From Vicinamibacterales bacterium (GTDB lineage: Bacteria > Acidobacteriota > Vicinamibacteria > Vicinamibacterales > SCN-69-37), in NCBI GenBank assembly GCA_046590915.1, contig JBKJTD010000412.1:1-41624 (forward strand): a stretch of DNA of 41,624 bases, written 5' to 3'. Shown piece by piece: positions 2,505 to 40,307 of the stretch; positions within the stretch are counted from its first letter, which is position 1, and the number at the start of each line of letters is the position of its first letter. The notes under the pieces are model-generated. The model was not told the origin of the DNA. It worked only from the letters and a program-made list of their open reading frames with translations, and ran no database searches. The position numbers and the translations under genes are program-made.

Positions 2505-3320
2505 GTGCTGACGACGGTGTTTGTCATGCTGGCCGGGGCTGGGGCCGGCAGCCTCGGGGCGATGCTTGGCCTGGGCGGCGGCATTTTCCTGGTGCCACTA
2601 CTCAACATTGCGCTGGGCATTCCCATCGACAAAGCGATGGCCATCAGTCTGGTGACGGTAGTCGCCACGTCCAACTTTGTCTCGGTGTCTTCGGCCGGAC
2701 GCAAGTACGCCAATGCGCGACTGGCAATGGTGCTCCAAGTCGCGGCCGCGATCGGAGCATTATGCGGCCTGTGGATCCTCAACTACGTGGACGAGCGCTC
2801 ACGGGAACTGATCTTTGCCGGCACCGCGCTGCTGGTGGCGATCGTCATGATCGCGCGACTCAACGCCCGCAACGTGCTCGATCCTGGCGTCACCGACGTC
2901 GGTCTGCTTGGCGGCCGTGTTGAGGACCCTGACACCGGCGGCTTGGTGGCGTACCGCCTCAAGCGACTCCCGTTCGGACTGTCGGTCACCTTTGTCGCCG
3001 GTATCATTTCGTCGCTGGCCGGTGTGGGAGGCGGCGTACTCGTGGTCCCGGCACTCAACTCCTGGTGCGGCATCCCGATGCGCGTCGCCGCAGCGACCAG
3101 CGCAGTCATCCTCGGCGTTACCGCGATGCCCGCCGTGATCGACTATTACCTGCGCGGACACCTCACGATGCCCACGTTGGCCGCGGCCGCTGTGTTGGGT
3201 GTGCTCGCCGGGTCACGCGCCGGTTTCTGGATCAGCTCACGAGTGAGCGTGCGCGCGCTGAAAATCCTGATGGCGGTGATCCTCGCGGGGGTCGCAGCGG
3301 AGTACCTCTTCTTCAAATGA
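2505..3320 (+). CDS. TauE/SafE-family (TSUP) sulfite exporter-like membrane protein
   Basis: Two GLGGG/GVGGG..VP repeats, A.ATS motif, about 8 hydrophobic segments. Confidence 0.9.
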   Translation: MLTTVFVMLAGAGAGSLGAMLGLGGGIFLVPLLNIALGIPIDKAMAISLVTVVATSNFVSVSSAGRKYANARLAMVLQVAAAIGALCGLWILNYVDERSRELIFAGTALLVAIVMIARLNARNVLDPGVTDVGLLGGRVEDPDTGGLVAYRLKRLPFGLSVTFVAGIISSLAGVGGGVLVVPALNSWCGIPMRVAAATSAVILGVTAMPAVIDYYLRGHLTMPTLAAAAVLGVLAGSRAGFWISSRVSVRALKILMAVILAGVAAEYLFFK

Positions 3321-3718: not shown

Positions 3719-4747
3719 TCAGCGCAACGAGTCGTCGTCGGCGAACTCTTCCGGGCTCGAAGGGATGGTGCCGGAGTGGGCAGCCGCCTCTCGCAGCCGC
3801 TCGTCGGCGGCGTTGCGCATACGATCGAGCAGCGACGAAATCCGCTCGGTCTGACGCGCCACCTTCTCAATCTCGCCAGCCGCCGCCGGGTGCAGCTTCT
3901 GCATAATCCCGCACTGACCAGCGATCACCTGCAACCCGCTGTTGATTTCCGTGGCAATCGACAACGTCATCTCCGCCGTCGCCTCCATCGTCTTGAACCG
4001 ATCCAGCGCCAGATACTGCTGCTGAACCACGTAGGCAAACGCGAGCACTTCGGCGAGCGGCTGGAGAATGTCACGATGTGAGACGTCAAATGCGGCCGTC
4101 TGCTTCGAAATGACCGTCAATGCACCAATCGCACGGTTGCGTGAAATCAGCGGCAGGATCAGCAACGAGTGAAATCCCTGCGACGCAAGCACGCCGGCGT
4201 CATGGAAGTCGGACGCGAATGTCTTCGTGTCTTCGATCAGCACCGGCTCACAGGTGCGAATCACCTGACCGAAAATGCTCCGTTCCAGGCTGAACTGCAA
4301 TTCGGCGCGCGGGCGACGACGACGCTCGGGTTCGCTGACGCGGGAGCTGTAGACCTGGAGCGACTGGCCATCGTCTTTCACCAGTGCGAGTCCGATACGG
4401 TCGCAGGGGATCAGTGTGCCGATGCGGCGCGTGAGCGCCTGGAAGGCGAGTCCGACGTCCTTGGAGCGGCCCGCCATGGTGAGCATTTCGTTCAGCGTGC
4501 CGAGCTGAGCGAACTCCGTGAGCGTCGCTTCATGCTGGACGCGTCGCTGGTGAAGTTCCGATTTCAGTGTAGTGATGAGTCGGGACGCAGCGAGGGCGAA
4601 CCCCAGGATCGCGCCCCAGGCAATCACCAGGTGCAGCGCTGTGGCCTGGCCGGACGTCAACCACTCGCGCTCGGCGCCCGCCCACACAAGGGCCTGCAAT
4701 GCCGCGGCGGCAAGAACAGCGACCAGGAGCGTGCGGGACTGGTTCAT
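3719..4747 (-). CDS. Membrane-anchored GAF-domain protein with degenerate HisKA-like C-terminus
   Basis: Two N-terminal TM segments, GAF signature (SLLILPLISRNRAIGALTV...F), C-terminal IATEINSGLQVIAG resembling an H-box. ATGA overlap with the upstream gene. Confidence 0.8.
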   Translation of the reverse strand: MNQSRTLLVAVLAAAALQALVWAGAEREWLTSGQATALHLVIAWGAILGFALAASRLITTLKSELHQRRVQHEATLTEFAQLGTLNEMLTMAGRSKDVGLAFQALTRRIGTLIPCDRIGLALVKDDGQSLQVYSSRVSEPERRRRPRAELQFSLERSIFGQVIRTCEPVLIEDTKTFASDFHDAGVLASQGFHSLLILPLISRNRAIGALTVISKQTAAFDVSHRDILQPLAEVLAFAYVVQQQYLALDRFKTMEATAEMTLSIATEINSGLQVIAGQCGIMQKLHPAAAGEIEKVARQTERISSLLDRMRNAADERLREAAAHSGTIPSSPEEFADDDSLR

Positions 4748-7398
4748 TCGCTCTCGAGTTTGTACGCGTCCGCCGTGGGGCGCAACGGTCGATCAAACCA
4801 TGCAGGTCGCCGAGTGCCATCGGGTCCCGGCGCGGGACGCGTCTTGGCCATCCACTCTTTGTAGAGCTCGTGGGACTTGTTCGTGTCCACACAGACGTCG
4901 CCGTAGTGATCGTCTGGACCGGCTTTTTCGAGCCGCACTTTCTGGTGCCAGCAGTGCATGCCGGAGACCGGGTCGGGCTGAACCGGAAAGGTCAGATTCT
5001 GGTGCACGCCGACCTCGGTCCACCAGACGCGGCTGCTGTCAGGATCCTTGCTCGAGAACGGCTGGGCGCCATGGACCTGACGCATCTCGACCTTGCCGTC
5101 GGCGGATCGTGAAATCTTGACGAGCGCCGTCGCGTTGCGGGAACCGCCCTTGTCCTCGTCCAGCCGCCACCGGCCAAGGTGGTGAGACATGCCGACCACG
5201 CCGGGGCGAATGCCTTCGGTGACCCACGCGCGCGTCACAAAAAACCCGATGCCGGTGTGCACCTTGACGAGGTCGCCGGTGGCAATCCCGAGCCGCGCCG
5301 CATCCCCGGTCGCCATCCAGAGAGGGTTGCTGTGTGAAATTTCATACAGCCACTTCACAGGGGAGCGCGTGTGAATGAGTGTCGGCAACCGGAAGTTCGG
5401 CAGCAGATCGAATTCGTTTTCCGACCGGTTCAAGTCGCGCCAGTACACGTGCCCTGGTACGTAGCGGGGAATCGCGTGTTCGGGCCAGCCCCATTCGGCG
5501 AGTGTGGTCGAGTAGAACTCCAATTTCTTCGACGGCGTTGTGAAGCCGGAGGCCTCGTAGGCCTTGCTGTACGCGACCTCATCCACCTGAAACGCGCCGT
5601 ACTTGCGCATGTACTGCAGCGGCGTGAGGTCTTCCTTCGCGGCGGCCTCTGGCAGGCCGGGAACGGAGTTCTCAAACATCCAGCCGTAGTAGTCGTCCAT
5701 GGTGATCTTTTCGCCAGGGCGATACGGGGATTCAAAAAACTTGCGGATGCCGAGTGAGCCGTCCGGATCGATCTTCCAGGACAACGCGACCCAGAACTCG
5801 GACTCTTCCCACACCTCACCAGGATTGGCTTCGTGGGTGAGTGCCACCGGGTTGCCCTGTTTTTCGAGTGCAACACGTTTGACCGGCTGCCTGAAGCCGA
5901 GCCATCGGCCCGCATGGGTCTCCTGGCTCATCGTGTCGTGACGTTCAGTGCCCAGGCCCATCGGCAGGATGTAGTCGGCGAACCACGCGGTCTCGCTCCA
6001 GATCGGCGTGAGCGCGACGTGCATGCCGATCTTGGATTCGTCCTCGAGCACTTCCATCCAGGTGAAGCCGTCGGGGTTGGTCCAAAGCGGGTTGTAGACG
6101 CGTGTGAAGTACACGTCGAGTTTGCCACGGCCTTCTTTGAGAAAGTGGGGCAGCAAAAAACTCATCTCGTGGAAGGAGAGCGGGAACTCCTTCGGGAACA
6201 ACAACTCGTTCCAGTAGTTGGGTGCCGGTGGAGGATTGGGATGTTTCGGAACGAACTTGTTGGTGGTGTGCAGATTGACGCCACCCTTTTCGCCGATGGC
6301 GCCCATCAACGCGACGAGCAGGTACAGCGCGCGCGTGATCTGCCAACCCCACAGGTGGCCAGCGGCAGCTGCCCGCCAACTGTGTGTCGCGAATGCTGTG
6401 CCTGCAGACGCGATGGCTTCAGCGGCTTCGATAATCTTGTGCGCCGGCACCCCGCTCTCGATCTCGGCGTACTCGGGCGTGAAGAGCTCGTATTCCTGCT
6501 TCAGTGCGTCTTCGAATGCGTCGAACGTCCTGGGGAGATCGGGCCGCATCGCGTCGAGGTACTGCTCCCAGTTCACCCATTTCTCGACGTAGGGTCGGTT
6601 GTACTTCTTGTTGTCGATCAAATACCGCGCGATGGCCAGAATCAACGCGCCTTCGGTGCCGGGATTGGCCGGCAGCCACAAGTCGGACTTGGCCGACGTG
6701 TTCGACATGCGCGGATCCATCACGATGAGCTTGGCGCCGGCGGCTTTGCCCTCGATGATGCGCTGCGCGTGCGGGTTGAAGTAGTGACCTGATTCCAGGT
6801 GCGACGACAGCAGCAGAATCGTCTTGGCGTTGGCGTAGTCGGGTGACGGCCGATCCGCGCCGGTCCACAAGAAGTGGCCGAGGCGTGCCGAAGACGAGCA
6901 GACGTTGGTGTGGCTGTTGTGACTGTCGAGGCCCCACGACTGAATCACGCGATTCGCGTAACCGTCTTCGCCAGGCCGACCGACGTGGTACATGATTTCG
7001 CGCTTGCGGTCCTCGGTGATCGCCTTGCGCACACGGGCGCCGATGTCTTCCAGCACTTCGTTCCAGGTGACACGTTCCCACTCGCCGCCGCCGCGTTTGC
7101 CGATGCGCTTGAGTGGATACAGGATGCGATCCGGATCTTCGAGCTGATTGGGGGTGACCACGCCCTTTGCACAGGTCCGGCCGCGGCTGCCCGGATGGAC
7201 CGGGTTGCCTTCAATCTTGCGAACGTTCAGCGTGTCCTTGTCGACGTACGCGAGAATTCCACACGCCGACTCGCAGTTGAAGCAGATGCTGGGAATGATC
7301 CAGTAGTTGCGCCGGTCCTTCTTGGGCCAACTGGTGGACTCGAAGTCAACGTAGTTGTCCCAATCGGAAACCGGTGGGTGTGATCGAAACTCCGTCAT
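4744..7398 (-). CDS. Molybdopterin (bis-MGD/DMSO reductase family) oxidoreductase catalytic subunit
   Basis: CFNCESAC...CAKG 4Fe-4S motif, DRILYPLKR, SHTNVCSS (putative Cys ligand), DPR.S, ADYILP, C-terminal molydop-binding domain. No twin-arginine signal. Confidence 0.93.
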   Translation of the reverse strand: MTEFRSHPPVSDWDNYVDFESTSWPKKDRRNYWIIPSICFNCESACGILAYVDKDTLNVRKIEGNPVHPGSRGRTCAKGVVTPNQLEDPDRILYPLKRIGKRGGGEWERVTWNEVLEDIGARVRKAITEDRKREIMYHVGRPGEDGYANRVIQSWGLDSHNSHTNVCSSSARLGHFLWTGADRPSPDYANAKTILLLSSHLESGHYFNPHAQRIIEGKAAGAKLIVMDPRMSNTSAKSDLWLPANPGTEGALILAIARYLIDNKKYNRPYVEKWVNWEQYLDAMRPDLPRTFDAFEDALKQEYELFTPEYAEIESGVPAHKIIEAAEAIASAGTAFATHSWRAAAAGHLWGWQITRALYLLVALMGAIGEKGGVNLHTTNKFVPKHPNPPPAPNYWNELLFPKEFPLSFHEMSFLLPHFLKEGRGKLDVYFTRVYNPLWTNPDGFTWMEVLEDESKIGMHVALTPIWSETAWFADYILPMGLGTERHDTMSQETHAGRWLGFRQPVKRVALEKQGNPVALTHEANPGEVWEESEFWVALSWKIDPDGSLGIRKFFESPYRPGEKITMDDYYGWMFENSVPGLPEAAAKEDLTPLQYMRKYGAFQVDEVAYSKAYEASGFTTPSKKLEFYSTTLAEWGWPEHAIPRYVPGHVYWRDLNRSENEFDLLPNFRLPTLIHTRSPVKWLYEISHSNPLWMATGDAARLGIATGDLVKVHTGIGFFVTRAWVTEGIRPGVVGMSHHLGRWRLDEDKGGSRNATALVKISRSADGKVEMRQVHGAQPFSSKDPDSSRVWWTEVGVHQNLTFPVQPDPVSGMHCWHQKVRLEKAGPDDHYGDVCVDTNKSHELYKEWMAKTRPAPGPDGTRRPAWFDRPLRPTADAYKLESE

Positions 7399-7452: not shown

Positions 7453-8976
7453 TTACGAGATGGGCACGCACTGTCCGGCCTCGACCCAGATGTATTCCCA
7501 TGCGAGTGAACCTGCGAGGGTAACCACGGCCATGGGGACCAGGGCAAGCATCGAGAAACCCGTGATCGACGCGAGCCAGAAGAGCAGCAGGGGGGCAATG
7601 CCGCCCAGACCGAGCGCGCCGGCCCAGAATAGTTTCGCGTAGGCGCCCGATCGAATCTGCCGCACGGCGAGTTCGTGATGGCGGCTATGGCTGCGGAACA
7701 CCAGGTTCTCCGCGACCAGAATCAGCAGGTGTACCACCGTGGCGCCGGCGAGTGTCCAGCCCAGTGACTGAAGTGTGGCCGCGTTCACGTCGATGAACAA
7801 CGCCGCCAGCAGCAACGCCGCGCTGCCTTCGGCTGCGGCCTGCGCACACAGATCCACCGTGTGATGCCATCCCTGCCAGAGATCACGTGCCAGGCCCTGC
7901 GCGAAGAGCAGTCCTGTGTAGGCAGTCGCCGCCAGCGCCACCGGCAACGCCAGCACCGCGAGCACGGTGATGACGACCGGGAGGTCAAGCAACCACGCAA
8001 ACATCCACAGTCCCGCGATGGCGCCATGCGCGGTCAGGATGAAAGCCCCGCGCGCCATCCACGACGTCCAGTTCGGCCGCGTCAGGATGTAATAAAACCG
8101 CTCCGGGCGTTCAAGGTCCCAGACCAGAACGGCGGCCGTCGCAATCGCAAACACCGTCGCGATCAGCGGAGAGACGATGCCCGTGAGGGTGGACGTGTCG
8201 CCCATCAGCCAGAATAACGCGCCGAGAAACAACGCCCCGGTCGAGATGCCTTTTGCGATCAGGTACAACACGAGATCCATGCCCCAGGCTTTTTTGTGAG
8301 GCGCGTCGTAGTCGACTCGCGGCACTTCGGGGTGCAGCGGATCGGGTTCAAGCGCACCCAACGGACGCAGATGGACGTTGCCTTCCTTGAAGATGAACGG
8401 CCGCGTCGCAATCTCCGGCTTCATGATGCTGTCGTCCGCCGAGAGATAGAAAATCTTCGGCCCCGTTCCCTTTTCCGGCTTGCGCACCGAAAAGTCCTGC
8501 TGGGCGACGATTTGGGCCACCTTGGTGGTCGGGTCGTCGAGGTCACCAAAAATGCGGCACTCGGTGGGACACACACTCACACAGGCCGGCTGCAACTGGT
8601 TTTCGATGCGATTCGCGCAGAAGTTGCACTTCTCGGCCGTCCGGGTGTTCGGGTCGATAAACAGCTGGTCGTAGGGGCAGGCGGCCATGCACGCCTTGCA
8701 CCCGATGCACGCGTCGCCATGTAGATCCACGATCCCGTCGTTGCGCCGGAAGAGGGCGCTGGTCGGGCAGATGTTCATGCACGGCGCATCCTCGCACTGG
8801 TTGCACAGGACCGGGAGAAACAAGCGTTCGGCGTCCGGGAACCGGCCCTTTTCGACCGTTTTCACCCAGCACCGATTCACGCCGACCGGAATGTCGTGTT
8901 CAGACTTGCACGCGATCGAGCACGCATGGCACCCGATGCACTTCTTGAGATCGATGACAAACCCATAGTTCGGCAC
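7453..8976 (-). CDS. Fused 4Fe-4S dicluster (NrfC/DmsB-like) + NrfD/PsrC membrane anchor
   Basis: CIGCHAC, CNQCEDAPC..ICP, CIGCKACMAACP, KCNFC...PACVSVCP, followed by DLERPERF / WTSWMARG NrfD motifs and multiple TM helices. Confidence 0.93.
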   Translation of the reverse strand: MPNYGFVIDLKKCIGCHACSIACKSEHDIPVGVNRCWVKTVEKGRFPDAERLFLPVLCNQCEDAPCMNICPTSALFRRNDGIVDLHGDACIGCKACMAACPYDQLFIDPNTRTAEKCNFCANRIENQLQPACVSVCPTECRIFGDLDDPTTKVAQIVAQQDFSVRKPEKGTGPKIFYLSADDSIMKPEIATRPFIFKEGNVHLRPLGALEPDPLHPEVPRVDYDAPHKKAWGMDLVLYLIAKGISTGALFLGALFWLMGDTSTLTGIVSPLIATVFAIATAAVLVWDLERPERFYYILTRPNWTSWMARGAFILTAHGAIAGLWMFAWLLDLPVVITVLAVLALPVALAATAYTGLLFAQGLARDLWQGWHHTVDLCAQAAAEGSAALLLAALFIDVNAATLQSLGWTLAGATVVHLLILVAENLVFRSHSRHHELAVRQIRSGAYAKLFWAGALGLGGIAPLLLFWLASITGFSMLALVPMAVVTLAGSLAWEYIWVEAGQCVPIS

Positions 8977-8985
8977 GCGAAGCGA

Positions 8986-11900
8986 CTATAACGCACCGGG
9001 GGGGACGGCGTACAAGGCTTGAACGAGGACGTTCAACTGACCGCGGAGTTCCGAGTCGCCGGGGTCCCGAGGTCCCGAAGTTCCGAGGTTGGCGAGGTCT
9101 CTTGCGAGAGTCGCGATCTCGTCCTGTAACGGCGACCCGGTCCACGGGGGGACCGGAAGGTTCTCCACCAGCGTCGTCGTGACGTGGCTGCCCATTTCGA
9201 GGCGGACGAGGCGATCCATCACTGCGGAGTTGAACACCCCGCACAAAAAATACTGCTGTTCGATCGCAATCTCCGTTTTCAGGCAGAACAACGTGTGTGT
9301 CGTGATGACGCCCGCGGGGATGATTGCGGCGACGAGCGCCTGGGTATTGCCGAACCCGGAGACGTCGCGGTACGCAAGTCGCGCGCGCGCAAATCGTCGA
9401 TCCGGAAACCGGCCCGCCAGTACAGCATCCTCAATCACCATCGAGGGCCTGCGCCGATCGAAGGTGAACGGTCCGATGTGTTTGCCCTCAGCGACCAGAT
9501 GGCCGGCTCGACCTGGCACCCGCGTTCTGAACAGATGTTTGTCGTCGGACGCGTTCAACTCCCGGCTGAAGGTGATCTGCCATCCGTCCGGGGAGCCAAG
9601 CGTGGGGAACCGGCGAACGTGGGTGATCCACTCCACGTCAGCAGGCTGCCGCAGATCGAGCCATCGTCGCGTGGGGCCGCCAAGAGTGGTCATCACGTCA
9701 CGAGTCAGCCGCACTGGCAGTGTGTCTGCGTCCTCTGGGTCGCCGTGCTCCGCAATTGCCTCGGCTTCCTCAATCGTCGTGACGCCGAATCGGGCCCGTG
9801 TCACACCACCGCTGCCGCCCGCGTTCGGCGATCGCATCACGACGACGGCGAATCGCACACCGCGGTGAATCGGGAAGAGTCCGTGGGAGTTGTCGAAGCC
9901 GACAATGGTATCGAGCGTGCCTGTATCGACCACCGCCCGGCGCAACTCCGCAGCACCATCGTCGACGGCCATGCCCCAGGGCAGCACGAGGCCGACGCGG
10001 CCGCGAGGGCTCGTTAGTTGAAGCGCGCGGTCGACAAAGGGTTGATACAGATTGATCTGGCCTCTGAAGCATCGTGGATACAGCGCGGACTCACGAATGA
10101 ATCGCACCAGTGAATCCCGATCGTGGCTCGATCGGTGTGAGTGCGCATCGCGTCGCAACATCTCCCAGGGCGGGTTGCCGATGACTGCGTCAAACCCGGA
10201 GTCAGAACGGGGTTGTCCGTACTGGTCGTAGAACACATCGGCAAATTCGACGGGCCAGTGGAAGAAGCGATGTTCCGCCGCACGGTCAAGGGCGATGTGA
10301 CGAAAGCGATCAACGTGGCCGCCGCCGATCACGTCCTGCCCGCGCAGGATGGATTCGATGGCGGCCGCAAGTTCTGCCGGAGCCGGTCGATGGCAGGTCG
10401 GCGGCCAGAACCATCGCGCGCACCACAGATGCATGGCGGTCAACCAGCGCGCCGCCGGGCCGTCGGAGGCCATCAAGCGTAACCACTCCTGTTCCTTGCG
10501 CCGCACATCATTGACCGATGTATCCGGCTGTGCGGCCATGGCGCGCAGTGGCATGGTCATTCCTCGCAGGCTGTGTTGCAGTTGCGACTCGAGCGCCTCG
10601 AATAGTGGCAGTGCGTGCGAGGTGGCACCAATCGGACGCCTGATGATGTCGGGGGCCGTCCCAATCAAGCTGTGGCCCACCCGGAGCCGGTGATCGAGAA
10701 AGCCCAGGGGCTTGCCGTGTGCGAGTGTGGCGAGCCATAACGAGAGGCGCGCCACCTGCACGGCCCTCGGATTGTTGTCGACACCGAAGAGGCATCGTTG
10801 CGCGATGAGGCGCCGGAAGGTCGCCCGCATGTCGTCATCAATTTCGAGCGGCGTGTAGCGCCCCTCGGCGACCAGTGATCGCTCGTAGGCCGATGACAGG
10901 TAGTGCAGGGCGGCGACCAGGAATGCTCCGCTCCCCATGGCGGGATCGACAATGCGAAGCGTGAGAATGTCGTCGGCGGATGCGCCATGAACCAAGGGGC
11001 CAAGCGTGCGGCGGATGGTCAGGTCGGCAATGGCCTGAGGTGTGTAGAACGTGCCGGTATCCTTGCGCGCCGCGCTGTGGTTTGAGCGTATCGCCGGAAT
11101 GGGGTGTGTGGTGCCGATGGTGTCTGGATCGAGGTCGAGCACACGCTCGTACACAGCGCCGAGTTGTTCGACGCCAAAGTCCCCGTAGTTGAGGGGCAGT
11201 CGTCCTGCGCGGTCGGTTCGCGTGCCCAGCGCCAGCAAGGTGTCGCGTAGCGCCTGGTCACGAGCGCGGCTGCGCGGCGTGGGACTGGTGTGACGCCGGT
11301 CCGATTCAAGCGACGGCGCGGAGCGTGCCGAAAAGAGGTGTCCGTTGAAGGGGAACACGCGCAACGAATCGACCGTTCCGCCGGTGCGTGAGAGTGTCGT
11401 GATGGCGGCGAGCGCGTCCCAAAGGCCGGATGAGCCGGCGCGCATGGCGTCATCACACAGCGCCGTGAGGGTGTACATCTCCCGATAGAGCGGGTGGTGC
11501 ACCGGCACCAGCGCGCGTGACTCGGCGAAGAGGAGGAACAGGACGCGATAGACGAGTGTGAGCGACTCGTCGAAGGCACTGGGGGCGACGTGCCCAGGTC
11601 GGCGCAGCACGCGCGTGAGCGCGTGCAGCGCCTCCACCACACCCGCCTGCAGGTGCCCGTGCAGGCGCGCGTGATATCCCGCGGCGTCGGCGAGCCGGTC
11701 ATTGAGTGCACGCGTGTCAAATGCCGACGCGTGCGCGAGCGTCAGCAGAATCCCTGCTGCGTCGCCCTCCACGGCGTCGGGAAATGTGAAGTCGAGCGCG
11801 CGCCGGCTCGCGTGCCCGCGAGCCGGCACGAGCGACAGGTGCGGCGGCGCCAGCACGAAACACCAGTCGGCGCCATGCAGACGCGCCGTCGCGATCGCGT

Positions 11901-12228
11901 CGCGCCATGGCGCGGGCGGGCGTGCCGCCCACCCGCGCCATCCCAGCACCTGCAGCGCGACCGCCTGACCGCGCGGCGTCACAAGCCGCGCGGTCAGGCC
12001 GTCACGCGACGCCGCCAGGTCCCGCGCGCGGAATCCCAGCCGCGCAAACAGCGGCATGGCGACGAGGTCGCAGACCGCGCGCGCGCCTGTGGCCGGCCCA
12101 CACTGACGCGCCACATCCGCCCACCACCGAGCGAGTGACGCCTGACGACGAGGGTCGACGGGCGCAGCGCGCTCGGCGAGCCACTGCGACGGAAATAGAT
12201 GGCCGCCAACGCCTGGCAGCGCGCTCAC
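8986..12228 (-). CDS. Eco57I/type IIG-like N6-adenine DNA methyltransferase (DrmMI/PglX-like)
   Basis: LGAVYERVL, RKDTGTFYTP, motif I DPAMGSGAFL, FGVD.NP.AV..ARLSLW, motif IV GNPPW, TRD-like C-terminus. Confidence 0.9.
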   Translation of the reverse strand: MSALPGVGGHLFPSQWLAERAAPVDPRRQASLARWWADVARQCGPATGARAVCDLVAMPLFARLGFRARDLAASRDGLTARLVTPRGQAVALQVLGWRGWAARPPAPWRDAIATARLHGADWCFVLAPPHLSLVPARGHASRRALDFTFPDAVEGDAAGILLTLAHASAFDTRALNDRLADAAGYHARLHGHLQAGVVEALHALTRVLRRPGHVAPSAFDESLTLVYRVLFLLFAESRALVPVHHPLYREMYTLTALCDDAMRAGSSGLWDALAAITTLSRTGGTVDSLRVFPFNGHLFSARSAPSLESDRRHTSPTPRSRARDQALRDTLLALGTRTDRAGRLPLNYGDFGVEQLGAVYERVLDLDPDTIGTTHPIPAIRSNHSAARKDTGTFYTPQAIADLTIRRTLGPLVHGASADDILTLRIVDPAMGSGAFLVAALHYLSSAYERSLVAEGRYTPLEIDDDMRATFRRLIAQRCLFGVDNNPRAVQVARLSLWLATLAHGKPLGFLDHRLRVGHSLIGTAPDIIRRPIGATSHALPLFEALESQLQHSLRGMTMPLRAMAAQPDTSVNDVRRKEQEWLRLMASDGPAARWLTAMHLWCARWFWPPTCHRPAPAELAAAIESILRGQDVIGGGHVDRFRHIALDRAAEHRFFHWPVEFADVFYDQYGQPRSDSGFDAVIGNPPWEMLRRDAHSHRSSHDRDSLVRFIRESALYPRCFRGQINLYQPFVDRALQLTSPRGRVGLVLPWGMAVDDGAAELRRAVVDTGTLDTIVGFDNSHGLFPIHRGVRFAVVVMRSPNAGGSGGVTRARFGVTTIEEAEAIAEHGDPEDADTLPVRLTRDVMTTLGGPTRRWLDLRQPADVEWITHVRRFPTLGSPDGWQITFSRELNASDDKHLFRTRVPGRAGHLVAEGKHIGPFTFDRRRPSMVIEDAVLAGRFPDRRFARARLAYRDVSGFGNTQALVAAIIPAGVITTHTLFCLKTEIAIEQQYFLCGVFNSAVMDRLVRLEMGSHVTTTLVENLPVPPWTGSPLQDEIATLARDLANLGTSGPRDPGDSELRGQLNVLVQALYAVPPGAL

Positions 12229-14420
12229 TTCACTCCTCCGCGGACAGGCGTCACCAGCCCCACGAGCAACCGCGGCTCACCGACGAGGACGACGTCGTGA
12301 AAATGAGCTCGGAGGCGATTTTCGGAAAAATCGCCTCCGAGCTCATTTTCTGGCGGGTGTTCAAACAGTCCCGGCTGCGCGGAGGACGGCGCCGGCGGCT
12401 GGGCTCGGGCCCGTATGGCCGCCCGAAGACGCAGGCGGTGCGTCAGCACACGCGCACGAGGCACCGCGCACTGCCTCAGCAGTTCAAGTGGCGCATCAAC
12501 ATCCACCGCAACGATCACCCGTTCGACCACATCTCCGCTCGGCGTCACCAGCGGGATCTCATAGGTCGCGACTCCCGCGGCGGGGCGTCCCAGCCAGCGG
12601 CACACCAGCAGCGAGCTCACAACGGCGATGCATCGATCGGTGGCGCCGGAATACCGCCAGCAGGCGGAGAGTCGGCGTTGACGGCCGTACCATTCGGCCA
12701 GGCCGACGGCTGCACGCGTCCACCGCCGACACGACAGCATCGACACCATGGAGGCCTCAGCGCCCTGCGCCGCGCGCGCATCAAGCCGCTCGTGCAACGA
12801 ACGATCGAACGGATGTCGCGACGTCAGCACGGTGCCGTGCACGCGCTGCGTCTGGCCGATGCGATCGATACGGCCCATGCGCTGTGCCAGCCGCAACGGT
12901 GTGGTCGGCACATCCACGCAGATGGCCCATCTGGCCGTCTCGTGCAGATTGAGGCCCTGACTCGCGACATCGGTGGCCACCAGCACGTCGGCGCGCTGCT
13001 CCAGAAACGTCTGCAGCGCCTGGTGTTGCTCGGAGAGCGTCTGACCGCCATGCATGACCACGCCGTGTCGACCGCGCGGCAGTGCCGCCACGATCGACGC
13101 CAGGGTGTCCCTGTACTGTGTGAAGACCACCGCCCGATCGGGACAGCGCCTCAGCAAGGTGGTCAACGCCTGCGCCCGACTGCCGCTCACCTGCCGCGAG
13201 CACAGATGCGTGAGACGCAGCAACCACGCGCGTTCCCGCTCGACCGGCAGACCACTCGCACTCACGAGCGCCTCCGCCTCATCTGCCGCAAACCCATCGC
13301 TCTCAAAGAGCCCCTGCTGACGCCAGTCATCTTCGGTGGGGAGTGGCCGCTGTTCGATGATCGCAAGGCGACGCGTGAGGGATGCGTGGAGTGCCGCCGG
13401 CGACGACAGCAGGCGTCGGCGGAACACCGCGCAGATGAGGGGCAGACCCGCGGTCAGCGGCAGAGCAACGGGATGCCGCAGCGATCGCTCGAACAGGTCG
13501 ATCATCTGCAGTGCGCGCAGGTCGTGCTCTTTGAGTCGCACCGGGAGCCAGCGGACACGTCGGCGACGGCGGTCGGCCTCGCGCGTGCGGCGAAAGATCG
13601 TGGGCGGCTCCCCGCGCGAACCCACCGACAGCAGTCGACGGAAGCGTGTCTGGTCGCCATCGTGGGGTGTGGCCGTCAACAGCACGACGGCGCGCGCGGC
13701 AGTGGCCAGGCCGTCCAGTGCGGCGTGCCTCTGCGAGTCGCCCGACAGCAGATGCGCCTCGTCAACGACGATCAGGTCCCACGGCGCGACCGGCAGCGCG
13801 TCCAACACATGGGGCTGCTTGAGGAAGTCGAGCGACGTGAGCCAGACGCCCGGCAACAGCCACGGGCTGCCCAGGTAAGGCAGGGCCCTCCGGAGCTTCG
13901 CGAGCGAGACGGTATCTGCCACGCGCGGGTCCATTCCGAAGCGCGTCGCAAGTTCCCCCTTCCACTGGTGCAGCAGGGTGGCGGGGGCGACGACAAGCAC
14001 ACGCGCATCGGGATGGTCGTCGAGCGTCGTCCTGACGATCAGGCCCGCCTGCACCGTCTTGCCCATCCCCACATCGTCTGCAATCAGCAGGCGTCGACGC
14101 CCAGCCAGCAGCGCCAGCACGGGCTCGAGTTGAAACGGGAGAATCGAGATATGAGTGTGGTTGAGTGGCCCCGGCGTGAATGCCAGCCGTGCTGACGCCA
14201 CATGGCCCGCCAGCCGGGCAACCGCCTGACGAGGCCTGACGCGCACGATCCCCGGCCGTCGTTGAACGACGACGAGGTCTCCCGGAATCAAAAAGGCGCG
14301 AGTTTCACCCGTATCCCGGGCTACCGCCCGCAGACACGTCAACCCTGTACCGTGGCGCTCCTCAACGACGCGCCAACGGCGTCGCCGAATCCACACATCG
14401 GACATCGCAGTTTTTGCCAC
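12225..14420 (-). CDS. SNF2-family helicase (DrmD/RapA-like)
   Basis: LLIADDVGMGKT, DEAH, LTATP, VVFTQYRDT, ATDVASQGLNL, QRMGRIDRIGQ. GTGA overlap with the methyltransferase. Confidence 0.92.
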   Translation of the reverse strand: MAKTAMSDVWIRRRRWRVVEERHGTGLTCLRAVARDTGETRAFLIPGDLVVVQRRPGIVRVRPRQAVARLAGHVASARLAFTPGPLNHTHISILPFQLEPVLALLAGRRRLLIADDVGMGKTVQAGLIVRTTLDDHPDARVLVVAPATLLHQWKGELATRFGMDPRVADTVSLAKLRRALPYLGSPWLLPGVWLTSLDFLKQPHVLDALPVAPWDLIVVDEAHLLSGDSQRHAALDGLATAARAVVLLTATPHDGDQTRFRRLLSVGSRGEPPTIFRRTREADRRRRRVRWLPVRLKEHDLRALQMIDLFERSLRHPVALPLTAGLPLICAVFRRRLLSSPAALHASLTRRLAIIEQRPLPTEDDWRQQGLFESDGFAADEAEALVSASGLPVERERAWLLRLTHLCSRQVSGSRAQALTTLLRRCPDRAVVFTQYRDTLASIVAALPRGRHGVVMHGGQTLSEQHQALQTFLEQRADVLVATDVASQGLNLHETARWAICVDVPTTPLRLAQRMGRIDRIGQTQRVHGTVLTSRHPFDRSLHERLDARAAQGAEASMVSMLSCRRWTRAAVGLAEWYGRQRRLSACWRYSGATDRCIAVVSSLLVCRWLGRPAAGVATYEIPLVTPSGDVVERVIVAVDVDAPLELLRQCAVPRARVLTHRLRLRAAIRARAQPPAPSSAQPGLFEHPPENELGGDFSENRLRAHFHDVVLVGEPRLLVGLVTPVRGGVK
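12300..12350. repeat. 51-bp intragenic palindromic element, copy 1 (in helicase C-terminus)
   Basis: 12299-12350 forms 24-bp perfect arms around a CGGA loop and encodes ENELGGDFSENRLRAHF in the helicase; 49/51 identical to 39846-39896. Confidence 0.95.
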
Positions 14421-14467
14421 CCCCTCGCACAGCTGCGTGAGCTGAGCGGAGTGACACCCCCTGCAGA

Positions 14468-14484
14468 AGCAACCCCGATGCCGG
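14468..14484 (-). promoter_or_regulatory. Putative sigma54 (-24/-12) promoter for the helicase-methyltransferase operon
   Basis: Minus strand CCGGCATCGGGGTTGCT: GG-N10-GC with GGCA...TTGCW, about 48 nt upstream of the GTG start at 14420. Confidence 0.6.
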
Positions 14485-14523
14485 CGGGATCGACAAAGCC
14501 CCGCCTCGGTGCCGTCCGCGACC

Positions 14524-17022
14524 TCACTGACCGTTAGGAAAGGCGAGGCGCTGCATTAAGGTGGCGAACCGTGGCTCACCCCGCAGGGTGTCGAACATCG
14601 GCTCAACCTTCAGATAGACGAGCAGACCGGAGCGGGACTCGCACGCCCGCTCGAGCCAGTCGAGCGCGTCGTTGCCGCGGCCCAGGCCGGCCAGCACCAG
14701 GCACAGGTCGTAGGAAGACGCCTCGCCCCGCCGGTAGCGCCGCTCGAGATCGCGCAGCACGTTCTCAGCCAGCCCGGTCCGCCCGGCCCGGCCGTAGATG
14801 TGGCCGAGCACCGCGCGCATCACGCTGCGCGGGTCATCGGCCGGCAACGCGGACTCGAAGTGAGCAATCGCCTCGTCATGCCGGCCGATCTGCGCGCACG
14901 CCATGCCAAGGTCGAAGTACGCTTGGACGAAATGCGCATCCATGTCGAGGGTGCGGCGGCACTGCGCGATCGCTTCGTCGTAGTTCCGCTGGAAGTGCAG
15001 GACGCGGCCGACCGCGGTGCTGATGATCAAGGAGAGCGGATCGAGTTCGTGCGCCCGCCGGATTTCCTCGGTCGCTTCGCCATGGCGCCCGAGCGCACTC
15101 AGCAGGAGGGCATACCGGTGGTGCGCGGCTGCGTGGCCTGGACTGAGCTTGCAGGCGCGGACGAACGCCGACTCCGCGGCACCCCAGTTCCAGTCGATGC
15201 GAAAGCGCACGAAACCGAGCGCGGTCTGGACTTCGGTGTCACCCGCATCGAGGCGCAGCGCCTGTTCCGCGGTCTCTCGCGCGCGGGCCATCGTCCGGGC
15301 CGACGGCTCTCCGTAGGCGGCGGCACTGAGCAGCGTCCAGCAGTCCGCAAGGCCGGCGTACGCCAGCGCGTAGTGGCTGTCTTCGGCAATGGCCTGCTCG
15401 AAGTAGCCGATGGCCTTCGTGAATCCGTCAAGCGTGCGTTTCGCGAGCTGATATCGGCCTTTGAGGTGCGCTTCGAATGCGCGCGGGTTGGCGGTGTGGC
15501 GTTTGACGATGCGCTTGCGCTCCGCCGGCGTCAGCCGCGGTCGCAGCTGTTCGGCGATCTCGGCGGCCGCCTCCTCCTGCAGCGTCAGCGCGTCGGAGGC
15601 GTGGCGCTGCATCTGTCCGCCCCATATCTGCGATCCATCATGCGTGTCGACGAGCTCGACAGCGATCACGACGCGGTCGCCGGCGGTGCGCAGCCGTCCC
15701 GTCAGCACCGCGCGGACGCCGAGCTCGCGGCCCACGGCCTGTGGATCCGCGTCGCGCCCCTTGTAGCGGAAGACCGTGCTTCGCGCCATCACCTTCAGCT
15801 GCGGCAACTGCGAGAGCACATTGATCAGGTTCTCCGTGAGGCCGTCGGCGAGATACTCGAGGCCCGCGTCGCCGCTCGCGGTCGCCAGCGGGAGCACCGC
15901 AATGGATTCGATCGTCTTGCCCGCCTTTTTCGGCCGCGTCACGAGACCGGCGCGATGACGGCCGCCTGACGCGGACACCGGGGCGTCGTACGCTTTCAGC
16001 GCCACGAGTGCGGCGTGCATCTCGCGTGCGCTCGGGAACCGTCCCGCCGGTTCCTTCGACAGCGCGCGCGTGAGACAGTCGACGAGCGCCGGCGGCGCGT
16101 TGGGCAACGGCGGTGGATCGTGCTCCAGAATCGCGACGAGGACATCGGCAATCGTGCGCCCGCTGAACGGAGCCGTGCCCGCGATCATCTCGTGCACGAC
16201 CACGCCGAGGCTCCAGACGTCGGTCCGCGCGTCGAGCGGCAGGCCCCGCGCCTGCTCGGGCGACATGTACCCGGGCGTCCCCATGATCGTGCCCGGCTGC
16301 GTCAGTGAGTTCGCGCGCGCCCCGTCGGCGGTGAACGTCTTCGCGAGGCCGAAGTCGAGCACCTTCACGTAGCCGTCGGGCCGCACCATGATGTTCTCAG
16401 GCTTCACGTCGCGGTGGACGAGGTCACGGCCATGCGCGGCGGCGAGTGCACTCGCCACCTGCGTTGCGATATCCACCGCCTCGATGATGCCCAGCGCTCC
16501 GTCGCGCAGCCGACACCGCAGCGTCCGTCCCTCGACGTACTCGGTCACCATGAACGGACGCCCGTCGATCTCGCCGAAGTCGTGAATGACGAGGATGTGC
16601 GGATGATTGAGCGACGACGCCGCTTTCGCTTCCTGGTGGAAGCGCTGCAGCTGCAACGGATCGGCGTGCACATGGCTCAAGAGCAGTTTCAGCGCGACGG
16701 GCCGATCCAGCTTGTCGTCGTGCGCGAGGTAGACCTCGCCCATCCCGCCGGAGCCCAGACGCGACAGCACGCGGTATCCGGCCGTCGTCTGTCCGCTGAG
16801 ATCCTCCTGCGGGGATTTTAGCGCTTCCACGAGCGATGGAGGCTGCTCGCGGAAAGCGGCGGCCGTTACGTGCGACGCCAGGAGCGCGTCGACCTGGGCG
16901 CGCAACGCCCGGTTCTCACCGCACGCGGCCGTGATGTATTCGATCCGCTGCGCACCAGTGCGCTCGACAGCCGTGTCGAAAATCTGTCTGACGCGTGGCC
17001 AGTCCTCGGGGCGGAAGGTCAT
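14524..17022 (-). CDS. Hanks-type Ser/Thr protein kinase with TolB-N-like domain and TPR repeats
   Basis: GSGGMGEV, VALK, HRDVKPEN, DFG, GTPGYMSPE, DVWSLG; SIAVLP...DGLTE.LI domain; C-terminal TPRs. Confidence 0.95.
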   Translation of the reverse strand: MTFRPEDWPRVRQIFDTAVERTGAQRIEYITAACGENRALRAQVDALLASHVTAAAFREQPPSLVEALKSPQEDLSGQTTAGYRVLSRLGSGGMGEVYLAHDDKLDRPVALKLLLSHVHADPLQLQRFHQEAKAASSLNHPHILVIHDFGEIDGRPFMVTEYVEGRTLRCRLRDGALGIIEAVDIATQVASALAAAHGRDLVHRDVKPENIMVRPDGYVKVLDFGLAKTFTADGARANSLTQPGTIMGTPGYMSPEQARGLPLDARTDVWSLGVVVHEMIAGTAPFSGRTIADVLVAILEHDPPPLPNAPPALVDCLTRALSKEPAGRFPSAREMHAALVALKAYDAPVSASGGRHRAGLVTRPKKAGKTIESIAVLPLATASGDAGLEYLADGLTENLINVLSQLPQLKVMARSTVFRYKGRDADPQAVGRELGVRAVLTGRLRTAGDRVVIAVELVDTHDGSQIWGGQMQRHASDALTLQEEAAAEIAEQLRPRLTPAERKRIVKRHTANPRAFEAHLKGRYQLAKRTLDGFTKAIGYFEQAIAEDSHYALAYAGLADCWTLLSAAAYGEPSARTMARARETAEQALRLDAGDTEVQTALGFVRFRIDWNWGAAESAFVRACKLSPGHAAAHHRYALLLSALGRHGEATEEIRRAHELDPLSLIISTAVGRVLHFQRNYDEAIAQCRRTLDMDAHFVQAYFDLGMACAQIGRHDEAIAHFESALPADDPRSVMRAVLGHIYGRAGRTGLAENVLRDLERRYRRGEASSYDLCLVLAGLGRGNDALDWLERACESRSGLLVYLKVEPMFDTLRGEPRFATLMQRLAFPNGQ

Positions 17023-37672: not shown

Positions 37673-39349
37673 TCACTTCTGCCGGGCGAACACCTCGCCG
37701 AGCCACGCGATCAGCGCATCGGTGATCGCCTTCGACACGTTCTTGTCGGGCAGGGTCGCGTACTCTTCCGCCTCGCCCGTTGTCGCGGGCACGAGCAGGT
37801 GATTCACGCCGGGCACCACGACTTTGCGCGTGGGCACCGCGGTGCGCGCGCGGCGCTTATTGGCCAGCCCCTCAAGTGCGTCGGCGTGTGATGGCGGGAT
37901 CTGAAAGTCGAGCGCTCCTTGCACGATGAGCACCGGCTGGTCCGTTCTGCGCATCGCTTCGACTGGATCAAATGACAGCCAGCTCTTGAACCAGAGCGTA
38001 TCGGCCTGCCTGCGCAGCTCGGGCGGGATGGTCTCCCATCCACGACCCGAGGTGACGGCATCCATCAATCTTGTTTGCAGCGCGATCTTCTCCTGTTGTG
38101 ACGCATCCGATTCCGAAGAGCGACTCAGGGCGTGGCGCTGTTGAGCCAGCGTGATTTCTCGACCGGTCGTTCCCGGCGCGGCCAGAAGCGCGATCGCATC
38201 GATGTCGCCCTTTTGCTGTCCCGCAGCAAGGAGCGCCACTGCGCCGCCTTCCGAATGACCGACCAGAGCCACGTGGTCGCGGTCGACATCCTGGCGGTGA
38301 CGCACCCACTGCACCACCGTGAGAGCATCCTCGGCGTAAGCCTGGATGGATGTGCTCTCGATACGGCCGCCACTTTGTCCCACGCCTCGTTTGTCATAGC
38401 GGACGACGAAGTAACCCGCGTCAGACAACCTCGCCGCAACCTGGCCGAGAATAGGGATGCCAAAGACGGTTTCGTCGCGATCCTGGGCGCCGGAGCCCGA
38501 CAACAGAATCACCACCGGGGCTTTGACGACTGGCGCCGCCGCGGGAGTGATCGTTGCCGCAATGTTGAAGCCGTTCGCGGGAATAAACAGTTCTTCGTCG
38601 CGCGGATGGCTGAAGCTGTCGAGCCGTGCCATCACGGTCGACAGGTCATCACGCACGACCGCCACGGATGCCACCGGAATGGCCAGTCGCGCCAGGCGCC
38701 CGCGCGCATCCACCCAGACCTCGATGTTCAATGGACCTGACGGGTTGGGGAAAATCAGATCGAACTGGCGCAGCTCGTACTTGGTTGAGGGCGTCTCCAT
38801 CCGGCGTGGCGTGATGCGATCGATACGCACGCCGAGCTCGGTCTGCGGTGCGATGTAGACAGGCACCATGTCGCCCACCGCGCTCACGTGCAGACGCATT
38901 GCAAGCGCCTCGTACGCCGAGTAGAAATTATTGGGAAGGATGACTGTCGACGTCGAGACCTTGTGCGTCAGCTTCGACTGTTGCCCCGCCTGCACCACCT
39001 CGGACACCGCGTCGTTGTTGGCAAATGTCGTCTTGAGCGACATCGGCTGGCCACGCAACTGGCCGCTGATCTCCAGCGACCGCGTGTCCCAGTTTGCGGC
39101 GTATCTGGCGATGAACGTGTCAAATGCAAAATTGAGCGGCGCGCCGGAGTTGCCGGTGGCCGTGATGGTCCAGCCATCAGACGCACGCGAGACCTCGACG
39201 TGTTCGGCGCCGACGCGCTGGCCACGGAGAAATATCGTGAAGTCCGCAGGGCCGGCCTGGTCGTGGGACTGCGCCGAAAGGGACGAGAGCGCGCACGTGG
39301 CGCCCACGGCCAGGACCAAGGCACTAGAATGACGAAGCCATCGATTCAT
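37673..39349 (-). CDS. Secreted alpha/beta hydrolase with N-terminal beta-rich domain
   Basis: Signal-like N-terminus, SGSG.QDRD, RYDKRGVG, nucleophile GHSEG, G..D.Q, NHL. Confidence 0.88.
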   Translation of the reverse strand: MNRWLRHSSALVLAVGATCALSSLSAQSHDQAGPADFTIFLRGQRVGAEHVEVSRASDGWTITATGNSGAPLNFAFDTFIARYAANWDTRSLEISGQLRGQPMSLKTTFANNDAVSEVVQAGQQSKLTHKVSTSTVILPNNFYSAYEALAMRLHVSAVGDMVPVYIAPQTELGVRIDRITPRRMETPSTKYELRQFDLIFPNPSGPLNIEVWVDARGRLARLAIPVASVAVVRDDLSTVMARLDSFSHPRDEELFIPANGFNIAATITPAAAPVVKAPVVILLSGSGAQDRDETVFGIPILGQVAARLSDAGYFVVRYDKRGVGQSGGRIESTSIQAYAEDALTVVQWVRHRQDVDRDHVALVGHSEGGAVALLAAGQQKGDIDAIALLAAPGTTGREITLAQQRHALSRSSESDASQQEKIALQTRLMDAVTSGRGWETIPPELRRQADTLWFKSWLSFDPVEAMRRTDQPVLIVQGALDFQIPPSHADALEGLANKRRARTAVPTRKVVVPGVNHLLVPATTGEAEEYATLPDKNVSKAITDALIAWLGEVFARQK

Positions 39350-40307
39350 GACGCTCCAGTATCGCACCATCGAAGAATCGGCCATGTCGGCCGACATCAG
39401 TTCACGGGGACGCCTGCGTTTTGAGGGGCCCGATGCCGCCTCGTTCCTGCATGCGCTCGTCACTAATGACGTCGAAGGCCTGCCACCTGGTCGGGGGTGT
39501 TACGCCGCATGGCTCACGCCACAGGGCCGGATGATCACCGATCTGCTGCTGCTTCGCGATGCAACCGGCGTCTGGGCGGAGGTCCCTGAGGGGATGGCGC
39601 CTGCCCTTCTGGTGCGCTTCGACCAGCTGATTTTTTCCGAACGGGTACAGGTCACCGACGTCACCGATTCGCACCGCGTGTGGCTCGTCGTCGGCAGTGG
39701 GGCAGTCGCCGCTGTGGCGGAGGCGACCGGTGCCGATCCCGCCACAATCGAAGCCCTGCCGATGTTCGGGCACCTGACCTCAGGTGATATCCAGGTGATC
39801 CGCACCGACGAGACAGCGCTGCCGACTTTCCAACTGTGGTCCCCTAAAATGAGCTCGGAGGCGATTTCCGGAGAAATCGCCTCCGAGCTCATTTTCGATG
39901 CCCTCCGCATCGAGGCCGGGCGCCCGAAGTTCGGGGTCGACATGACCACCGACACGATCCCGCTTGAAGCGGGCCTGCTCGGCCGCGCGATCAGCCAGAC
40001 CAAGGGCTGCTACGTTGGCCAGGAGGTCATCGTCCGCATCCTCCACCGAGGTGGCGGCAAGGTCGTCAAGCACCTGATGACCCTCGAGTTTGACGAGACC
40101 GTGACCGAGGTGCCTGCGGTGGGCACGACGCTCGCGGATGCCGGGAAGAATGACGGCAGAGATGTCGGCGTCCTCACCAGCGCAGCCCGCAGTCTCACGA
40201 CCGGCCGGATCATCGCACTTGGGTACGTCCACCGGGATGCAGCCACAGTCGGTCAGGGGCTGCATTCGACGGCCGGCGCTGTTACGATCACAGGCTTTGC
40301 TGGTTGA
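39348..40307 (+). CDS. ygfZ: YgfZ/GcvT-family folate-binding protein
   Basis: GPDA..FL....TND, L.PQGR, RIEAG, signature KGCYVGQE. Confidence 0.92.
   Translation: MTLQYRTIEESAMSADISSRGRLRFEGPDAASFLHALVTNDVEGLPPGRGCYAAWLTPQGRMITDLLLLRDATGVWAEVPEGMAPALLVRFDQLIFSERVQVTDVTDSHRVWLVVGSGAVAAVAEATGADPATIEALPMFGHLTSGDIQVIRTDETALPTFQLWSPKMSSEAISGEIASELIFDALRIEAGRPKFGVDMTTDTIPLEAGLLGRAISQTKGCYVGQEVIVRILHRGGGKVVKHLMTLEFDETVTEVPAVGTTLADAGKNDGRDVGVLTSAARSLTTGRIIALGYVHRDAATVGQGLHSTAGAVTITGFAG
39846..39896. repeat. 51-bp intragenic palindromic element, copy 2 (in ygfZ)
   Basis: 23-bp perfect arms around a CGGA loop; encodes KMSSEAISGEIASELIF in frame. Confidence 0.95.

Follow-up and report, generated by a model that had tools for sequence, protein, structure and literature searches.

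Two near-identical palindromes in a 41,624-nt stretch of DNA from a Vicinamibacterales bacterium (Acidobacteriota; contig JBKJTD010000412.1 of assembly GCA_046590915.1; the whole stretch is referred to below as the window) very probably belong to a family of hairpins of the REPIN type, doublets of repetitive extragenic palindromic (REP) sequences, associated with a REP-associated tyrosine transposase (RAYT). The system is of a known kind, REPIN/RAYT (REPtron/TIRtron-like). The window corresponds to contig C164 of a metagenome-assembled genome (MAG), designated G000, which comprises 3,624,143 bp in 460 contigs with 63.7% G+C and is 90% complete. An arm search of G000 allowing up to two mismatches returned 37 matches on each strand, compared with none on either strand for the reversed control. 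Pairing of the arms yielded 36 elements plus one truncated copy at C309:903, in line with the original prediction, made from the window sequence, that two copies in the window could mean many genome-wide. The remaining single arm matches were sites with two or three mismatches in G+C-rich DNA and resembled chance matches.

Each element consists of two inverted arms of about 20-22 nt around a hypervariable loop, with an interior of 5 to 65 nt. The family arm consensus was (A)AAATGAGCTCGGAGGCGATTT, and across the 72 arms positions -4 to +15 were nearly invariant, with the consensus GAAAATGAGCTCGGAGGCGATT. The spacers took 27 distinct forms in the 36 copies and had the modal length in 26 of them; the modal unit, from AAAT to ATTT, is 48 nt long and hence a multiple of three. 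The loop-closing pair was Watson-Crick in 30 of 36 copies against 19.4 expected, and a C/T polymorphism at arm position 11 covaried between the arms (Fisher's test, 0.027 in G000 and 8.5e-5 in G015, the genome of a sister species). Stem covariation was therefore found at both places. The two window copies themselves (12300-12350 and 39846-39896) are identical at 49 of 51 positions, and the two mismatches (T/C and A/G) pair with each other beside the CGGA loop; given the family-wide excess at this pair, the compensatory change noticed earlier is not coincidental. A DNA palindrome can symmetrise itself by template switching, and the covariation therefore shows that the hairpin is maintained, be it as DNA or as RNA.

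The transposase domain Y1_Tnp (Pfam) was matched in all 20 genomes of the genus and only once in G000 (C56:561-905), so that the window holds no mobilising enzyme, as had been stated. The corresponding open reading frame (ORF; C56:276-941, 221 aa) matched the NCBIfam model "REP-associated tyrosine transposase" (REP_Tyr_transpos; E 1.3e-21) and the solved E. coli TnpA-REP structure (PDB 4ER8; E 1.7e-5), with the HUH (NHFHL) and catalytic tyrosine (RYVERNP) motifs aligned. The palindrome type of the window lies on both sides of this gene, at C56:232-283 and 975-1024. A search for a RAYT/IS200-type transposase flanked by the same palindrome thus led to one such gene. Among 24 Y1_Tnp loci of the genus, a palindrome with a stem of at least 13 flanked both sides of 13 loci and one side of two, where the other side was cut by the contig or locus end; no such palindrome was detected at nine, more distant Y1_Tnp paralogues among them (L059, L065, L067, L073, L075, L078, L080, L081 and L082).

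The RAYT-flanking palindromes kept a constant build of A-tract, stem and T-tract, and their sequence varied by species. The type was GAGCTCGGAGGCGATTT in G000, G015 and G012, GAGCTCGGAGGTCATTT in G008, GAGCTCGTAGCTGATTCT in G003, GACGTCGGGTGTCTTTT in G004, G019, G001, G009 and G011, and CGACCTCAGAGGTCG in G007 and G017; G006, G016 and G013 carried further types. The right neighbour gene of the RAYT was kept in 12 other loci of the genus and the left neighbour in 11. Identity to the G000 RAYT was 47-74%, and 70-90% for the right neighbour gene. The RAYT thus appears, from this conserved gene order, to be vertically inherited at a fixed locus without copying itself. The build of the family, together with a single syntenic RAYT flanked by the same palindrome in species-specific types, therefore points to a REPIN/RAYT system.

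Two RAYT loci differed in detail. In G011 (L071; C5:216000-225000) a second RAYT gene lies 5.5 kb from the syntenic one; palindromes of the GACGTCGGGTGTC type flank the latter, and the second gene has a different palindrome (AAACCTTTCGGGTAGGTTTTTCC) on one side only. In G012 (L076; C324) the alignment of the RAYT at about 1456-2119 with the G000 protein falls into two pieces (residues 1-103 and 94-222) in different frames, and the gene appears frameshifted, possibly by sequencing error; many perfect arms are present in G012 nonetheless.

Arm matches on the two strands numbered 41/39 in G015, 29/32 in G008, 20/16 in G011, 18/20 in G012 and 12/14 in G003; copy numbers from such fragmented MAGs are lower bounds. 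Contigs of several MAGs end at the element, and the repeat therefore likely causes assembly breaks. Such ends, in or near an element, were seen at the start of G016:C61 (L041) and in the short G000 contigs C43, C46, C53 and C56. Outside the genus, few sites with one or two mismatches were present, all of them unpaired (41 genomes searched, G000 included), and the family is numerous only within the genus. Three G015 copies (L220:733-825, L233:733-825 and L244:788-884), all intergenic, have 61-65 nt between their arms; the interior of two of them contains another, unrelated perfect palindrome, as though a second hairpin had landed in the loop.

The window palindromes and their host genes

The coordinates of the two copies and their host genes are given in Table 1. 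An inverted-repeat search of the window returned arms of 24 nt with 100% complementarity for copy 1 and perfectly inverted arms of 23 nt for copy 2, 4 nt apart in each case. Both copies are in frame in their hosts, as had been proposed. Copy 1, translated on the minus strand as ENELGGDFSENRLRAHF, is in the C-terminal linker of the helicase, about 24 codons upstream of the stop; copy 2, translated on the plus strand as KMSSEAISGEIASELIF, encodes residues ~167-183 of the YgfZ-like protein, within its GCV_T domain. Direct repeats flanking either copy were not found, which agrees with the earlier report of no target-site duplication, and the 51-mer is indeed AT-rich for this genome, with 24 G+C positions out of 51. 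The 17-nt arm occurred four times in the window against 0.15 expected from shuffled sequence. Predicted RNA hairpin energies ranged from -38 to -42.5 kcal/mol, and no Rfam match reached the gathering threshold in the window.

Table 1. Positions of the palindromic copies and their host genes in the window.
Feature	Position	Strand	Details
REPIN-like copy 1	12299..12350	.	arms 12299-12322 and 12327-12350, loop CGGA
REPIN-like copy 2	39846..39896	.	arms 39846-39868 and 39873-39895, loop CGGA
Host gene 1, 731-aa SNF2-family helicase, DrmD-like	12225..14420	-	Helicase_C 4.9e-16, SNF2-rel_dom 2.3e-13, PADLOC DrmD 3.6e-62
Host gene 2, 319-aa YgfZ-like folate-binding protein	39348..40307	+	GCV_T 1.5e-23 (residues 15-210) plus GCV_T_C

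G006 has the helicase copy at the same site, there with a compensated C>T/G>A change, and one G016 contig ends in the element. At the site of the ygfZ copy, G015 and G008 carry variants of the same palindrome; the YgfZ-like orthologue itself was present in 31 of 31 genomes searched. Judging from these alignments, both window copies are old and sit in hypervariable linkers, where they replace native sequence rather than merely add to it.

Other small palindromes were seen in the same C-terminal region of the SNF2 gene at L042 (G011) and at L043 and L044 (G015, G009). A GGCGCGCT..AGCGCGCC palindrome at the 3' end of this gene occurs once in G009 and twice in G015, and in G011 two GC-rich hairpins follow the conserved LLVR motif. 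The genus thus seems to carry several hairpin families besides those flanking the RAYT.

The helicase gene is conserved in most of the genus. On the same strand (window 8986-17022), a gene for a 1080-aa methylase, DrmMI-like/type IIG-like (1.7e-77), overlaps it downstream, and PD-T4-6 kinase-like defence models (1.1e-88) were matched by an upstream ORF of 832 aa (14524-17022). No PADLOC match was obtained for two ORFs still further downstream (7453-8976 and 4744-7398). These genes may form a partial DISARM-like cluster. Three GC-rich inverted repeats (window 11796-12007; arms of 17, 16 and 23 nt, 88-94% complementary) also lie close together in the 5' part of the DrmMI-like gene. They were considered as further families and rejected; the repeat with 23-nt arms has no second copy in the genome, and the other two match only as GC-rich low-complexity strings.

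Copies inside genes and at gene ends

Reading frames were called with a codon-usage model trained on ORFs filtered by G+C content at third codon positions, which found the right frame in 99% of 300 test windows. Fourteen of the 36 G000 copies are enclosed in a single ORF whose coding frame is unchanged from one flank to the other. Every one of these 14 hosts has Pfam domains, which span or flank the element in 13: SNF2, YgfZ, LpxK, MetH, DUF72, a GidA-family protein, a MeaB-glyoxalase fusion, an amidohydrolase, homoserine dehydrogenase, FG-GAP, an amine oxidase, a PBP1C-like protein and threonyl-tRNA synthetase (ThrRS). In the fourteenth, an AcrB-family protein, the element is located past the domain end. 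The proposal that the palindrome lands in open frames and adds peptides is therefore supported well beyond the two window genes. By the codon model only, 18 of 41 copies were intragenic in G015. The extragenic location typical of REPINs thus does not hold for 14/36 copies in G000 and 18/41 in G015, which are in frame within ORFs. Each of 20 genomes has a single ThrRS gene, and in G000, G015 and G003 it bears the element.

Two of the host genes are of interest in themselves. The AcrB-family ORF (G000:C160:1-1518) continues beyond ACR_tran through the element for ~140 more residues, with a weak YtkA-like match, and may be an element-bridged fusion or simply have a long tail. A MeaB-like GTPase and a glyoxalase-family (methylmalonyl-CoA epimerase-like) domain form one open frame in most genomes of the genus (G000:C192:2857-4353 and orthologues, L195-L216), and the linker between them contains the hairpin element in G000, G015 and G008.

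On either strand, two of the three frames through the arm are open, and the third gives A-AAA-TGA. Eight intragenic copies in G000 are read as ..MSSEAI..IASELI.. and six as ..NELGGDF..NRLRAH..; frame use pooled over G000 and G015 was 21, 11 and 21. This pattern fits frame-blind insertion followed by selection. Coding sequence usually makes up ~85-90% of a bacterial genome, and given this share the intragenic copies are rarer than random insertion would give.

Among the 22 remaining G000 copies, 21 are at gene boundaries (14 tandem, 5 convergent, 2 divergent; divergent 1/23 in G015) and one is too close to a contig end to be classified. Genes commonly end at the element. Of 24 G000 ORFs approaching one, 10 stop inside it, nine stop at most 12 nt before it, two stop 15-20 nt before it and three read through; five of the 10 that stop inside do so at the TGA of the element itself. 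In G015 at least 27 of 28 such ORFs stop inside the element or at most 12 nt before it, and 16 of the 28 use its TGA.

Orthologous copies and species-specific arms

Eighteen of the 36 G000 copies were orthologous to G015 copies, both flanks directly beside the element matching at the protein level. In these pairs the arms were identical at 713 of 756 positions (94.3%), the 120-nt flanks at 3244 of 4519 (71.8%) and the loops at 65 of 159 (40.9%). At least half of the copies are therefore ancient and orthologous between species. A purely selfish insert that decays neutrally would not keep its arms so well conserved, and hence ongoing homogenisation or selection must act on them. The earlier view of a short selfish palindromic repeat family that lands in open frames is supported, with this refinement on the conservation of the arms.

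At five of five intragenic sites aligned across species, the palindrome types differed between species at the same place. The ygfZ site carries type A (GAGCTCGGAGG…) in G000, G015 and G008, the GACGTCGGG-type in G011, G009 and G012 and the CGACCTCAGAGGTCG-type in G006; more distant species have a native segment. The SNF2 linker holds type A in G000 and G006 and other small palindromes in G015 and G009. In the ThrRS loop, type A is found in G000, G015 and G003, the CGACCTCAGAGGTCG-type in G017 and G019, and no palindrome in G016, G006 and G011. The DUF72 site has type A in G000, the GACGTCGGG-type in G006 and no palindrome in G015 and G009. At the penicillin-binding protein (PBP) site, G000 has type A, G016 a type of its own, and G015 and G012 a single GACCTCTGAGGTC hairpin.

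The arms also changed at loci where the element itself was kept. In G008, GGTCATT/AATGACC was present in both arms of 28 of 30 paired copies. Of the 13 G000 copies with an orthologous copy in G008, 12 read GGCGATT where both arms of the G008 counterpart carry the G008 variant. G000, G015 and G008 have in common at C212:14274 the loop (ttcacgaa), the outer flanks and, in one arm, a GAGCTG variant private to this locus, and positions 11-12 are CG in G000 and G015 and TC in G008. C220:2503 shows CG, TG and TC in the three species, and in each of them the two arms are symmetric. It is not credible that the same mutations arose independently at tens of loci, and therefore some copying process must keep the resident arms matched to a genome-wide master and leave the loop untouched. 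These alignments indicate what would be concerted evolution of the arms at fixed loci by in-place conversion. The copying route may be inferred to be arm-by-arm strand exchange by the RAYT, short-tract conversion with palindrome symmetrisation, or re-insertion at hot spots. In a more far-reaching reading, which is less likely than not, resident hairpins would be rewritten in place, their arms but not their loop being converted to the master as the RAYT and its recognition sequence co-evolve.

Species-specific arms might instead have arisen by repeated excision and fresh insertion of whole elements at a few preferred targets. IS200/IS605 enzymes are target-specific, which would suit such a process, as would the differing types at all five aligned sites and the mostly unrelated loops at orthologous loci. 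A REPORTH preprint (10.1101/2024.10.14.618302) also describes, in its available parts, mixed REPIN types in 13 of 20 shared extragenic spaces in Pseudomonas chlororaphis. However, re-insertion does not account for C212:14274, where three species differ at positions 11-12 and yet have loop, flanks and the GAGCTG variant in common, nor for the ThrRS copies of G000 and G015, which are alike at 13 of 19 loop positions. The loops within one genome are moreover dissimilar, unlike fresh copies of one master. We regard re-insertion as unlikely to be the main route.

Several observations weigh against the assignment of the palindromes to a RAYT-associated REPIN family, or against the mechanism proposed for it. 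The tetranucleotide head of classical REPs (GTAG/GTGG or CGTC) is absent from the consensus GAAAATGAGCTCGGAGGCGATT, a single type-A arm alone folds weakly (-1.7 kcal/mol), and the NCBIfam RAYT score of 77 bits is just below the curated cut-off of 80. In G011 perfect type-A copies are kept, yet the syntenic RAYT is flanked by a different palindrome; maintenance may therefore not need a RAYT with cognate flanks. A clean empty site, a target motif and a duplication were sought at the ygfZ, SNF2, ThrRS, DUF72 and PBP sites and not found; every examined site was a hypervariable loop, often with another palindrome type, and therefore gave no exact before/after pair. The locus-by-locus comparison covered two further genomes, G015 and G008. 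Finally, the excess of arm over flank identity (94% against 72%) is not predicted by pure selfish insertion and decay, and the arm conservation could reflect a function at the host level.

Such a function, as a bidirectional terminator, an mRNA-stabilising hairpin or a protein-binding site, might even be the main reason why the element is kept, the link to the RAYT being secondary. The conserved arms would agree with this, and most non-intragenic copies are at the 3' ends of tandem or convergent genes, divergent contexts being rare (2/21 and 1/23). At -38 to -42.5 kcal/mol the hairpin is also very stable, and TTTT, a run of four T only, comes after it on both strands. REPs have been reported to act in termination and mRNA stability in the available text of Di Nocera et al. 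(2013; PMC3733652). However, ~40% of the copies are in coding regions, including those of ThrRS and MetH, where a terminator would be harmful. A simple terminator/consensus scan left the element unflagged, and the Rfam search of the window was negative. Host function alone also leaves unexplained why the palindrome flanks the RAYT and why its type tracks the RAYT locus. It is thus improbable as the primary explanation.

Two inverted ends of ~22 nt around a variable interior of 5 to 65 nt would also suit a MITE (a miniature transposable element with inverted repeats), or a footprint left on excision, of a DDE-type insertion sequence, with the arms as terminal inverted repeats. This is very unlikely, as no target-site duplication was found and the palindrome consistently flanks only one kind of gene, the Y1/HUH RAYT. 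Apart from two single sites with two mismatches, which look like chance matches, there were no unpaired arms within two mismatches, and therefore no full-length element is marked.

That the palindromes are an assembly or library artefact, or the 17-residue peptide a conserved protein motif, is hardly conceivable, since genomes that were assembled separately carry the family at orthologous loci, translation of the peptide uses two frames and either strand, and orthologues have other sequences in its place. With 36 copies in G000, the family is also not limited to the two in the window. In favour of an artefact, MAG contigs tend to break at the element (e.g. the G016 contig end), and no single contig in Logan spans it with at least 31 nt on both sides. 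Against it, soil-metagenome contigs of two studies hold the element, and one covers the left flank and the whole element; the best Logan holder may be the source sample and is hence not independent. At the helicase copy, one Logan contig covers 12060-12349 and another 12320-12416. In the soil-metagenome contigs the element had a summed depth of 35-240-fold, compared with 4-14 for its flanks, and it was joined to many unrelated flanks.

Relation to known systems and meaning

According to the available parts of the relevant papers (Bertels & Rainey 2011, PMC3116915; Nunvar et al. 2010, PMC2817692), the REPIN-RAYT systems of Pseudomonas fluorescens SBW25 and Enterobacteria share with the present family an inverted doublet that forms a hairpin, a spacer less conserved than the arms, compensatory changes, tens of dispersed copies, and a single-copy, syntenic, vertically inherited RAYT flanked by the repeat. 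The family differs from them in its A-tract/T-tract arms without a GTAG/GTGG head, in its almost perfect and short hairpin (~48 nt compared with ~100) and in its host, a member of the Acidobacteriota. In addition, ~40% of the copies here are intragenic and in frame, whereas REPINs are described as almost exclusively extragenic.

Closer parallels are found in Di Nocera et al. (2013; PMC3733652), whose available text reports genes for tyrosine transposases with REPs, or with inverted repeats of other kinds (TIRYT), on their flanks, a distinct Acidobacteria group among them. Some REPs in that text provide the stop codon of an adjoining ORF, and in Opitutus terrae and Rickettsia conorii others lie wholly within ORFs, where they encode 20-30 residues. 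The REPtrons/TIRtrons of that study thus share with the present system the repeat-flanked transposase gene, the supply of stop codons and the intragenic copies. They differ from it in the order of the host (Vicinamibacterales-like MAGs here) and in the repeat sequence; the locus-by-locus orthology and the species-wide arm variants go beyond what the available text describes. Rickettsia palindromic elements, as presented there, likewise lie in frame in functional genes and add a peptide.

The present repeat is shorter than the Rickettsia elements, is linked to a transposase and has a host that is not alphaproteobacterial. Rickettsia palindromic elements are ~100-150 bp long, and to our knowledge they have no associated transposase and their host is an obligate intracellular alphaproteobacterium. 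Elements of the IS200/IS605 family (IS608, ISDra2) encode a Y1 HUH transposase that recognises hairpins in single-stranded DNA and makes no target duplication. The present system resembles them in its Y1 HUH transposase (a relative of 4ER8), its palindrome and the lack of target duplication. It differs in that the RAYT is single-copy, syntenic and not self-moving, so that the mobile or maintained unit is the hairpin only.

The species-specific palindromes at a syntenic RAYT match the "orthoswitch" described for Pseudomonas and Stenotrophomonas in the available parts of Nunvar et al. (2013; PMC3686654), where orthologous RAYTs of related strains are flanked by different REP classes and new REPs may replace old ones. 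In contrast to these cases and to those of the REPORTH preprint, the shared sites here are inside protein-coding genes, so that the peptide changes with the repeat type, and one locus shows a changed arm with the loop and a locus-specific variant kept. A literature search, which was not made by taxon, found nothing on this family or on REPINs of Vicinamibacterales.

In the REPIN/RAYT interpretation, the family would belong to the single-copy, vertically inherited RAYT (HUH/Y1, IS200 superfamily; G000:C56:276-941). By analogy with the TnpA of IS200/IS605 and with E. coli TnpA-REP, this enzyme may recognise the hairpin in single-stranded DNA, cut it and rejoin it, and its action would copy or refresh hairpins without target duplication. 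Selection would then filter the copies. With two of the three arm frames open and a modal unit divisible by three, copies can survive within genes, in tolerant loops or linkers only; the surviving ones would be translated as KMSSEAI..IASELIF or NELGGDF..NRLRAHF. Copies in the TGA frame would survive only at the 3' ends of genes. Once established, copies would persist long at fixed loci, in-place conversion keeping their arms matched to the current master while the loop drifts.

A REPIN/RAYT system as such is already known; worth following are the unusually high share of in-frame intragenic copies and the concerted evolution that is clear at fixed loci. REPIN-RAYT systems are regarded as extragenic, long-lived and transmitted vertically, and the effect of a RAYT switch on the REPIN population is posed as a question in the available parts of the literature. 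In this genus a single syntenic RAYT occurs together with several palindrome types and with dozens of elements at orthologous positions, many of them in conserved genes. The reading frames of these genes are exact landmarks, and in-place conversion and re-insertion can therefore be distinguished; one locus (C212:14274) already points to in-place change. The essential enzymes ThrRS, MetH, LpxK and homoserine dehydrogenase tolerate a peptide of 16-20 residues dictated by a DNA hairpin, which is relevant for gene annotation, for protein-family alignments and, through breaks at repeats, for MAG assembly. If hairpins are rewritten in place, the intragenic copies would be "rewritable peptide cassettes" in essential proteins that track the specificity of a transposase and not the needs of the protein, and the genus would be a natural system for studying the dissemination of REPINs and their fate after a switch in RAYT specificity.

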